DNA of 64,000 nt, taken from positions 5,664,001 to 5,728,000 of the forward strand of contig OY762069.1 of NCBI GenBank assembly GCA_963665095.1, read 5' to 3'. The notes beneath the pieces were generated by a model that worked only from the letters and a program-made list of their open reading frames with translations, did not search any database and was not told the DNA's origin. The DNA is from an uncultured Desulfobacter sp. Its GTDB lineage: Bacteria > Desulfobacterota > Desulfobacteria > Desulfobacterales > Desulfobacteraceae. Shown piece after piece: positions 29,767 through 31,689 of this stretch (position 1 is the stretch's first letter; every line of letters begins with the position of its first letter). Position numbers and translations under genes: made by a program.

Positions 29767-30378
29767 ATGTACAACCCATCATTTCAGGGCGATGTCTGCA
29801 GTTACAGACATGCCTTTGTCCTTGACAACGTTATCAGGCGACTGCTCCAGAGCCCTAAAAAAATTGTCGGGCCCTATATTTCTTCGGGACATACGGTGAT
29901 TGATCTGGGCTGCGGCCCGGGATACTTCACCATTGAGATGGCCAGAATGGTCGGTGAAACCGGCCGGGTTATTGCCGTGGACATCCAGAATGAGATGCTG
30001 GCCAAAGTGGCAGGAAAAGCCGCACTTCTCAACCTTGAAGAGAGAATTTTCTTTCACCACTCAACCCAGGACGCCATTGGCCTTGGGGAAAATGTGACAG
30101 CCGATTTTATTCTGGCCTATTACATGGTTCATGAAACCCGGGATCAAGGGGCATTTTTCTCCCAGATCCGGAACCTGATTGCTGACGACGGGCTGGTTTT
30201 GATCGTGGAGCCCCCCTTTCATGTGACATCCCGGGAATTCGAACAGATGGCCCGGATTGCACAGAAAAGTGGTTTTACAATTGCAGACAGGCCCTCCAGA
30301 AAAGGAGGAAAAAGCCTCTTGCTGGCGGCAGCAGAGCAGCCAGTGGAAACGGAGGCAAACCCAAACAGTACTAATTAG
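29767..30378 (+). CDS. Class I SAM-dependent methyltransferase
   Basis: 'VIDLGCGPG', 'VIAVDIQ.EML'. Confidence 0.9.
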   Translation: MYNPSFQGDVCSYRHAFVLDNVIRRLLQSPKKIVGPYISSGHTVIDLGCGPGYFTIEMARMVGETGRVIAVDIQNEMLAKVAGKAALLNLEERIFFHHSTQDAIGLGENVTADFILAYYMVHETRDQGAFFSQIRNLIADDGLVLIVEPPFHVTSREFEQMARIAQKSGFTIADRPSRKGGKSLLLAAAEQPVETEANPNSTN

Positions 30379-30416
30379 ATTCTAACTATTTGAAAACACA
30401 AAAAATATTTTTCCGC

Positions 30417-30445
30417 TTGACTCCTTTCTTCAACGGGTTTATACA
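30417..30445 (+). promoter_or_regulatory. Sigma70-type promoter upstream of the aromatic leader
   Basis: TTGACT-17-TATACA. Confidence 0.6.
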
Positions 30446-30470
30446 GTCTTGTATAAAGAAGGAATCTTTA

Positions 30471-30551
30471 ATGAATACTCGCAAAACAGACAATTTTTAT
30501 TTTTATTTCTGGTATTATTTTTATACCGGCCTGCCTGTATTGCGATTCTAA
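30471..30551 (+). CDS. Aromatic-amino-acid attenuator leader peptide MNTRKTDNFYFYFWYYFYTGLPVLRF (26 aa)
   Basis: RBS AGAAGGAA, ten consecutive Phe/Tyr/Trp codons, followed by a terminator and the DAHP synthase gene; below the ORF-track size cutoff. Confidence 0.88.
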   Translation: MNTRKTDNFYFYFWYYFYTGLPVLRF

Positions 30552-30564
30552 TTTCTTTACAATT

Positions 30565-30605
30565 AAAAGCTGCAGGCAAACCAATCGCCTGCAGCTTTTT
30601 TATTT
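30565..30605 (+). terminator. Attenuator terminator
   Basis: AAAAGCTGCAGGC-9nt-GCCTGCAGCTTTT then TTATTT; ~40 nt before the DAHP synthase ATG. Confidence 0.85.
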
Positions 30606-30642
30606 CAAGTTTCAGGCGAAAAGCCCGCGAAAGGAATCAGCC

Positions 30643-31689
30643 ATGAAACAGATCAACGATGTCAATGTAGAATCAATTATTGCCCTGACAGCCCCGTCAG
30701 TCATTCTGTCGGAGTTCCCCGCTTCCGAACAGACCCGGAACAGTGTTGTCCAAGGCCGCAGGGAGATCGAAAACATCCTGACAGGGGAAGACAAACGCCT
30801 GATGGTGATTGCAGGCCCGTGCTCCATCCATGATACAGAAGCTGCCATGGAATATGGCCGGAAAATGAAAGCGCTGCGCGACGATGTGAAAGACAGAATC
30901 TGCCTGGTCATGCGGGTTTATTTTGAAAAGCCAAGAACCACCGTGGGCTGGAAGGGCCTGATCAACGATCCCTTTCTGGATTCATCCTATAATATGGAAG
31001 AAGGACTGAGACGCGCCAGATCCCTGCTCATCAGCATTAATGACCTTGGCCTTCCTACGGCCACCGAAATTCTTGATCCCATCACACCCCAGTACATTGC
31101 AGGACTTTTAAGCTGGGTGGCCATCGGCGCCCGCACCACGGAATCCCAGACCCACAGAGAGATGGCCTCGGGCCTTTCCATGCCTGTAGGTTTCAAAAAC
31201 GGAACCGACGGCACCTTAACCTCTGCCATCAACGCCACCCAGGCCGCAGCAGCCCCCCAGCATTTTCTGGGCATTGACCCGGAAGGCAAGACAGCTGTTG
31301 TATCCACCATGGGCAACCGGTTCGGTCACATTGTGCTTCGCGGGGGAACCTCTCCAAACTATGATCCCGTATCCGTGGGTAAAGCCCAGGACCAGCTGCG
31401 TGAAAAGGGCCTTCTTGATGCGGTCATCATTGACTGTTCCCACGACAACTCCGGCAAAAAATATACCGGCCAGTCCTTTGTATTCAACAGCGTTGTAGAC
31501 CAGCGTCTGGCCGGTAATGACAGAATTGTGGGCCTGATGCTGGAAAGCAACCTCCATGAAGGCAACCAGAAATGCAAATGCACAGGTGACGCCGCCAATC
31601 TCAAATACGGAATCTCCATTACGGATGAGTGCATCTCCTGGGAAACCACGGAAGAGCTGATCCGCTGTGCATTTGATAAATTAGCATGA
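30643..31689 (+). CDS. aroF: 3-deoxy-7-phosphoheptulonate (DAHP) synthase, class I alpha (AroF/G/H; isozyme not assignable)
   Basis: 'GPCSIHD', 'RVYFEKPRTTVGWKGLINDP', 'IGARTTESQ.HREMASG', 'DCSH.NS', 'YGISITD.C'. Confidence 0.95.
   Translation: MKQINDVNVESIIALTAPSVILSEFPASEQTRNSVVQGRREIENILTGEDKRLMVIAGPCSIHDTEAAMEYGRKMKALRDDVKDRICLVMRVYFEKPRTTVGWKGLINDPFLDSSYNMEEGLRRARSLLISINDLGLPTATEILDPITPQYIAGLLSWVAIGARTTESQTHREMASGLSMPVGFKNGTDGTLTSAINATQAAAAPQHFLGIDPEGKTAVVSTMGNRFGHIVLRGGTSPNYDPVSVGKAQDQLREKGLLDAVIIDCSHDNSGKKYTGQSFVFNSVVDQRLAGNDRIVGLMLESNLHEGNQKCKCTGDAANLKYGISITDECISWETTEELIRCAFDKLA

Follow-up and report, generated by a model that had tools for sequence, protein, structure and literature searches.

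A classical leader-peptide transcription attenuator probably controls the DAHP synthase gene of this Desulfobacter genome, admitting RNA polymerase into the gene when charged tRNA-Phe or tRNA-Tyr runs short, with Trp acting at most as a weak, lineage-optional third input; an additional lock is predicted at the DAHP synthase start codon. The sequence-only reading of the window, that is, of the whole stretch of 64,000 nucleotides analyzed, had proposed ribosome-mediated attenuation of this gene, and the proposal is supported by the conservation of the leader, the covariation of its helices, and a model of ribosome masking. All positions are those of the window, and all of its features described below lie on the forward strand.

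Leader ORF, promoter, and DAHP synthase gene

The leader ORF (30471..30551) comprises 26 codons, of which codons 9–18 (30495..30524) are all aromatic, encoding four Phe, five Tyr, and one Trp (codon 14, 30510–30512). Its Shine-Dalgarno sequence, AAGGA (30459..30463), lies 7 nt upstream of the ATG, and a purine-rich box is found there in relatives; the ORF, ribosome-binding site, and aromatic run proposed from the sequence were thus confirmed. Ten aromatic residues in 10 codons occur in one of the 79,216 short ATG-to-stop ORFs of the genome, namely the leader ORF, and the next best has eight. The leader peptide matched no protein family. A 53-codon extension from a TTG start at 30390 was rejected because this start lies upstream of the promoter.

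The sigma-70-type promoter proposed for the leader ORF (30417..30445) stood in part. Both boxes are present, TTGACT at 30417–30422 and, after 17 nt, TATACA at 30440–30445, and in 26 of 28 loci a -35 box reading TTGACW is conserved 54–69 nt upstream of the leader start. The register of the -10 box is uncertain: TATACA with a spacer of 17 was found in nine of the 28 loci and an alternative TA..T box with a spacer of 19 in others, and the consensus promoter scan made no call at 30417–30445. A 20-bp palindrome with perfect 8-bp arms (30438–30457) overlaps the -10 box; it was considered as an operator and rejected, having no counterpart in relatives.

The gene claimed to lie downstream of the terminator is indeed a DAHP synthase (30643..31689, 348 aa), assigned to class Ia by TIGR00034 (472.7 bits, cut-off 173.2), with PRK12755 also over its cut-off and the AroG and AroH isozyme models below theirs. 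Its Shine-Dalgarno sequence was placed at 30631..30635 from the sequence and the alignment, and the enzyme groups with Desulfobacteraceae-labelled rows in a quick enzyme tree.

Terminator, antiterminator, and competing helices

The strong terminator claimed between the leader ORF and the DAHP synthase gene was borne out by folding and covariation. This intrinsic terminator (30565..30601) consists of segment 3 (30565–30578), segment 4 (30587–30595), and a U tract (30596–30601), and its stem (30565–30577/30587–30599) folds at -21.8 kcal/mol (z -6.5), none of 200 shuffles being as stable. Segment 2 (30528..30545), identified by folding and 2:3 covariation, forms the 5' arm of the antiterminator inside the leader ORF, so placed that 30532–30539 pairs with 30571–30578 (2:3 fold -13.6, z -2.2), and this pairing and the terminator are mutually exclusive. 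The antiterminator had been proposed at these same positions and is supported by the fold and by compensatory changes. Absent from the earlier account is the 1:2 helix, in which segment 1 (30479..30492) pairs with segment 2 and which, from the fold and the pairs kept in the family, may serve as an anti-antiterminator and possibly as a pause hairpin. An inner hairpin (30509..30529) joins the GG of the Trp codon, or of the NGG codon in its place, to the CC of the next Thr codon.

Covariation was assessed in a 50-row alignment whose rows are kin and from which the structures themselves were drawn. The 3:4 terminator helix is paired in 92.2% of cells, the 2:3 antiterminator helix in 82.7%, and the 1:2 helix in 88.8% over its seven pairs; two-sided changes were found in 7/12, 6/12, and 4/7 pairs, respectively, and the covariation scores were 0.254, 0.276, and 0.121, the 1:2 helix being the weakest. 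For all three helices, none of 500 shuffles reached the percentage paired or the covariation score, and both exceed all slid registers, although two counts of pairs for 2:3 did not rise above shuffles (304/500 and 100/500). Compensatory changes in relatives, suggested earlier as a check on both the terminator and the antiterminator, are therefore seen in each. The two G-C pairs of the inner hairpin are kept in 92.9% of cells with no two-sided change. In seven loci searched against Rfam, nothing reached the gathering score; the best cis-regulatory match was the trpB motif (27.5 bits vs 59), and the eight weak matches included no Phe or Trp leader family.

Proposed switching and masking of the start codon

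A ribosome stalled anywhere from codon 9 to roughly codon 16 would cover segment 1 and leave segment 2 free, allowing 2:3 to pair before segment 4 is synthesized. The terminator could then not form, because 2:3 would form ahead of segment 4, and the freed segment 4 would capture segment 5 and uncover the AUG of the DAHP synthase gene. A ribosome that has moved past the aromatic run would cover segment 2, upon which 3:4 would form and transcription would stop near 30600; any read-through RNA would keep the AUG masked by 5:6.

The positions of the control codons were evaluated in a masking model with assumed ribosome footprint sizes (mask +12) and with the A site counted relative to the conserved Thr codon. 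While the A site is 12 to 5 codons short of Thr, the mean P(2:3) is 0.87–0.90; it is 0.09 at -1 and 0 from Thr onward, and the aromatic run ends at -2. As modelled, the control codons appear to lie where a stalled ribosome would leave segment 2 free and one that moves on would cover it. With a ribosome on codon 12, the terminator state lies about 9 kcal/mol below the antiterminator state at equilibrium (-45.0 vs -36.2), and since the terminator is favored despite the stalled ribosome, the switch must be kinetic. In ribosome-free transcripts lacking segment 4, 2:3 beats 1:2 in 36 of the 50 rows and 1:2 wins in nine, which suggests that 1:2 may be a weak competitor.

Segment 5 (30607..30619), which is conserved in the genus, has two predicted alternative folds, one with segment 4 and the U tract, that is, the terminator 3' arm (30585–30597; -16.3 kcal/mol), and one across the DAHP synthase start codon (30640–30649; -12.3 kcal/mol). 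Fold predictions mask the AUG in 21/23 genus loci without segment 4 and give an AUG pairing of <0.4 in 20/23 once segment 4 is present, with three of the 23 failing to switch. A new element is thereby predicted, in which segment 5 would mask the DAHP synthase start codon unless antitermination frees it; this 5:6 tier is evident within one genus only, where there is little variation. In 36/50 rows of the family alignment, the predicted pairing of the terminator 3' arm with the 75 nt that follow it exceeds that of 95% of shuffles. In many distant members (L025, L026, L036, and others), the partner is the 5' arm of a second terminator-like hairpin, which matches the 3' arm of the first terminator.

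Conservation and range of the leader family

The DAHP synthase was present in 24/24 same-genus genomes searched. The leader ORF and its aromatic run, whose conservation the sequence-only reading had named as a check, are kept in all 22 same-genus loci with upstream DNA, and the leader was also found in five of six loci of other families. Desulfobacter records carry the same leader type. A DNA pattern scan over 185,579 species returned 109 matches, comprising 100 aromatic leaders and nine off-target matches. Long flanks were available for 80 matches, 74 of them true, and of these 41 precede DAHP synthase Ia, 26 a protein of 265–280 aa, and three pheA, the remaining four being unresolved. Four of the 26 proteins of 265–280 aa were scanned, and all four are ADH synthases (TIGR01949 over cut-off), which open the archaeal-type route and are unrelated to DAHP synthase. 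The off-target matches L033, L039, L055, L062, and L117 have no connection with the leader: in Burkholderiales-type records, they mark the end of a single conserved gene that is followed by a sensor-like ORF.

A covariance model built from 50 rows (threshold E 0.01) matched 115/121 genomes of the class Desulfobacteria and 63/151 genomes of the phylum. Some of the class genomes belong to the training set or lie close to it, and weak matches may be generic. Among the 168 class matches, 112 besides that of the window were inspected by eye, and the genes that follow are ADH synthase in 62, DAHP synthase Ia in 34, pheA in seven, DAHP synthase Ib in four, and aroA, aroK, aroE, and trpE in one each, one further match being cut off. 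The best 25 matches outside the class precede DAHP synthase Ib (8), ADH synthase (8), DAHP synthase Ia (2), aroK (2), and other genes (5). The occurrence of the leader before DAHP synthase Ia, DAHP synthase Ib, or ADH synthase indicates that it follows the entry step, whichever enzyme performs this step. Tyr-run leaders were also observed before an ADP-forming acyl-CoA ligase alpha-like gene at two loci (L175, with a model score below cut-off, and L185); they may point to Tyr being made from an aryl acid.

The same comparisons bear on two rival readings. In one, the peptide itself acts, either as an arrest peptide that senses free amino acid, as TnaC does, or as a small hydrophobic protein, and its last residues do look conserved across families. 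However, what is conserved is single codons (Thr 47/48, Arg 48/49), a measure that is partly circular for the pattern-found rows and gives the same result in the protein-found rows; one position keeps its last two bases only and reads Val, Leu, or Met, and the bases of these conserved codons take part in helices 1:2 and 2:3. In distant matches, the C-terminus is free to vary, Phe and Tyr interchange, and the peptide belongs to no recognized family. Retention of C-terminal residues as single codons favors RNA pairing over an arrest peptide, and an acting peptide is very improbable. The other reading, which explains the ORF as an AT-rich accident and the hairpin as no more than the terminator of the marR-methyltransferase unit upstream, draws on the fact that this unit is on the same strand and ends at 30378. 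Such a hairpin would block the conserved promoter from its own gene, and the unique aromatic run, the conservation of the leader, and the covarying helices all stand against an accident. Of the 29 other loci, only four have the upstream methyltransferase gene in the flank that was retrieved, and conservation of the leader beside different upstream genes contradicts this explanation, whose probability is practically negligible.

Other aromatic leaders and regulators in the genome

The genome holds five aromatic leaders, including that of DAHP synthase Ia. A paralogous Phe/Tyr leader without Trp and with a terminator precedes pheA-aroE-aroA-aroK (G000:C1:1399225-1399369, reverse strand). A Phe-only leader (L279:153-292; G000:C1:1978352-1978491) precedes a gene for a 623-aa fusion of DAHP synthase Ib, prephenate dehydratase, and ACT, a pairing that recurs in three family members. 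A Phe-rich leader with a terminator lies before a LivJ-type ABC binding protein gene (L278; G000:C1:6735737-6735909, reverse strand), which suggests that the gene belongs to a Phe or aromatic importer, and similar cases are found at L177 and L192. The fifth, a Trp-containing leader with hairpins, was read by eye before trpEGDCF (L281; G000:C1, about 1385990-1386180) and has no Rfam match.

The proposal that a single leader integrates all three end products at the first step of the pathway is contradicted by this inventory, since the second DAHP synthase of the genome, the class Ib fusion, is under its own Phe-only leader; the entry step is performed by two enzymes with different leaders and has no one integrator. 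No TyrR-type domain was found over the cut-off in the genome. A stand-alone TrpR-like gene (L280:152-403; PF01371 over cut-off, TIGR01321 below) may add further control.

Amino acids sensed by the leader

Sensing of Phe, Tyr, and Trp together had been claimed for the leader. The mixed Phe and Tyr run holds, but the Trp part is weak, the codon being kept as Trp in 66/116 leaders and in 8/22 congeners. All of the 116 distinct leaders contain Phe (1–5) and Tyr (3–7), 67 contain one Trp, and none contains two. Their last 10 codons before Thr include 551 Tyr, 342 Phe, no TTA, no ATA, and one ATT, two of the ten codons being fixed by the DNA pattern itself in pattern-found rows. The counts leave out 10 duplicates, L014, two cut leaders (L024, L078), one locus without a leader (L028), and the nine off-target matches. 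In L014, a 1-nt deletion late in the run shifts the leader end, and in L058 the run is followed by a stop codon in frame; these are assembly errors or tolerated variants.

The Trp slot reads TGG in 66 leaders, CGG in 20, AGG in 14, GGG in 10, and another codon in five, and is missing from one. It encodes Arg, Gly, or Leu, mostly Arg or Gly, in 49 of the 116; within the genus, it is Trp in eight, Arg in nine, Gly in four, and Leu in one, so that 14 of the 22 congeners are non-Trp. The presence of NGG in 110/116 slots indicates that GG, not Trp, is the conserved part. Mapped onto a quick tree of 56 enzymes, the Trp label changes 15 times, with nine changes forced, against 17.7 in shuffles, and 58/500 shuffles are as low. 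A tally by eye, without statistics, found Trp in the run of 33/62 ADH synthase leaders, 14/34 DAHP synthase Ia leaders (three more borderline), and 2/7 pheA leaders, the last being too few for comparison and heading operons that also carry common-pathway genes. Trp input is not a conserved property of the family. In the source strain, the codon is well placed according to the masking model, and a weak Trp input is possible.

A true three-way sensor, in which limitation of Phe, Tyr, or Trp would each give clear read-through in this strain and the Trp codon has been selected for this purpose, is a minority possibility. It would be consistent with a modelled stall at codon 14, which leaves 2:3 free (P 0.99), with TGG being the commonest form of the slot, and with the few class members that hold Trp elsewhere in the leader or twice. 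Against these stand the single Trp codon, the pairing of the slot GG with the Thr codon, a Trp label no more clustered on the tree than in shuffles, the separate Trp leader before trpE in the genome, and the low sensitivity that few regulatory codons give in the modelling described in the available text of PMC1183508. At the other extreme, Phe alone (or Tyr alone) might be the effective signal. The precedent is the aroR leader of Corynebacterium glutamicum, whose Tyr codons bring no Tyr response in the available account (PMC11802643), so that codon content need not equal input; Phe-only leaders also occur in the present genome before the DAHP synthase Ib fusion and the ABC binding protein. However, these paralogues show Phe-only runs to be possible in this organism, and still its DAHP synthase Ia leader is mixed, and all 116 leaders carry both amino acids with Tyr in the majority, which makes a single signal quite unlikely. 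An attenuator responding to both Phe and Tyr, with Trp as an optional addition, is the preferred reading.

Significance

In a large class of sulfate reducers, the leader probably exerts the main control over the synthesis of aromatic amino acids, TyrR not being recognizable in the genome tested. A more ambitious interpretation, unlikely as a whole, would see a phylum-wide aromatic leader family acting as an OR gate for three inputs, coupled to a lock on translation, in which one scaffold stays on the entry step while unrelated enzymes (DAHP synthase Ia, DAHP synthase Ib, and ADH synthase) are swapped, codon changes re-specify the leader per branch (Phe-only, Tyr-only, or Trp-rich), one base in NGG toggles the Trp input, and the whole replaces the TyrR regulon. 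The leader family is absent from Rfam and ready for an entry there. It could also aid annotation, by identifying ADH synthase as the enzyme of the entry step and by pointing to transporters and CoA ligases whose genes probably serve aromatic supply. The natural TGG, CGG, AGG, and GGG variants in close relatives offer a test of whether one codon in ten adds an input.

Comparison with known systems

The mechanism itself is textbook, and multivalent leaders such as those of thr and ilvGMEDA are established. Both operons are listed as attenuated in the available text of PMC1183508. Attenuation of a DAHP synthase gene has already been proven in C. glutamicum, where the Phe-Tyr-Phe leader of aroR-aroF was demonstrated experimentally (Neshat et al., 2014; PMC11802643, PMC4046766, available text) and responded to Phe, not Tyr (PMC11802643). 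Among sulfate reducers, Desulfobacterium autotrophicum has a predicted pheL leader (PMC3082878, available text), and predicted attenuators before aroA'-aroB'-pheA-trp of Desulfovibrio vulgaris and aroF-tyrA of Vibrio are given in Table 7 of PMC1173090, as far as its accessible part extends. The novelty in sulfate reducers suggested by the sequence-only reading was therefore overstated. No description of a Desulfobacteria aromatic leader family was found in the literature searched, and earlier attenuator surveys or their supplements could already list a member. The Lopatovskaya 2010 survey reportedly covered delta-proteobacteria. A Desulfobacteraceae genome was screened in PMC11109978, according to its accessible text.

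In the Desulfobacter leader, as in aroR-aroF, a DAHP synthase gene is preceded by codons for Phe and Tyr; the two are likened by description only, and aroR-aroF belongs to another phylum and has three control codons, whereas the Desulfobacter leader has ten. The uORFC-13-1 motif of Acholeplasma, a predicted uORF with a terminator before aroF (PMC8632094, available text), shares this arrangement before a DAHP synthase gene but belongs to another phylum and is described as having Phe codons only. The D. autotrophicum and D. vulgaris predictions likewise concern sulfate reducers with aromatic operons, one of which starts with ADH synthase; for these and the Vibrio prediction, the accessible parts of the sources describe no leader family, mixed run, or antiterminator. 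Mechanistic parallels are pheL-pheA and trpL-trpE of Escherichia coli, which share the 1:2/2:3/3:4 topology and control codons that end where the ribosome reaches segment 2. Unlike these leaders, that of Desulfobacter mixes Phe and Tyr, with or without Trp, controls the entry step, and carries the extra segment 5.
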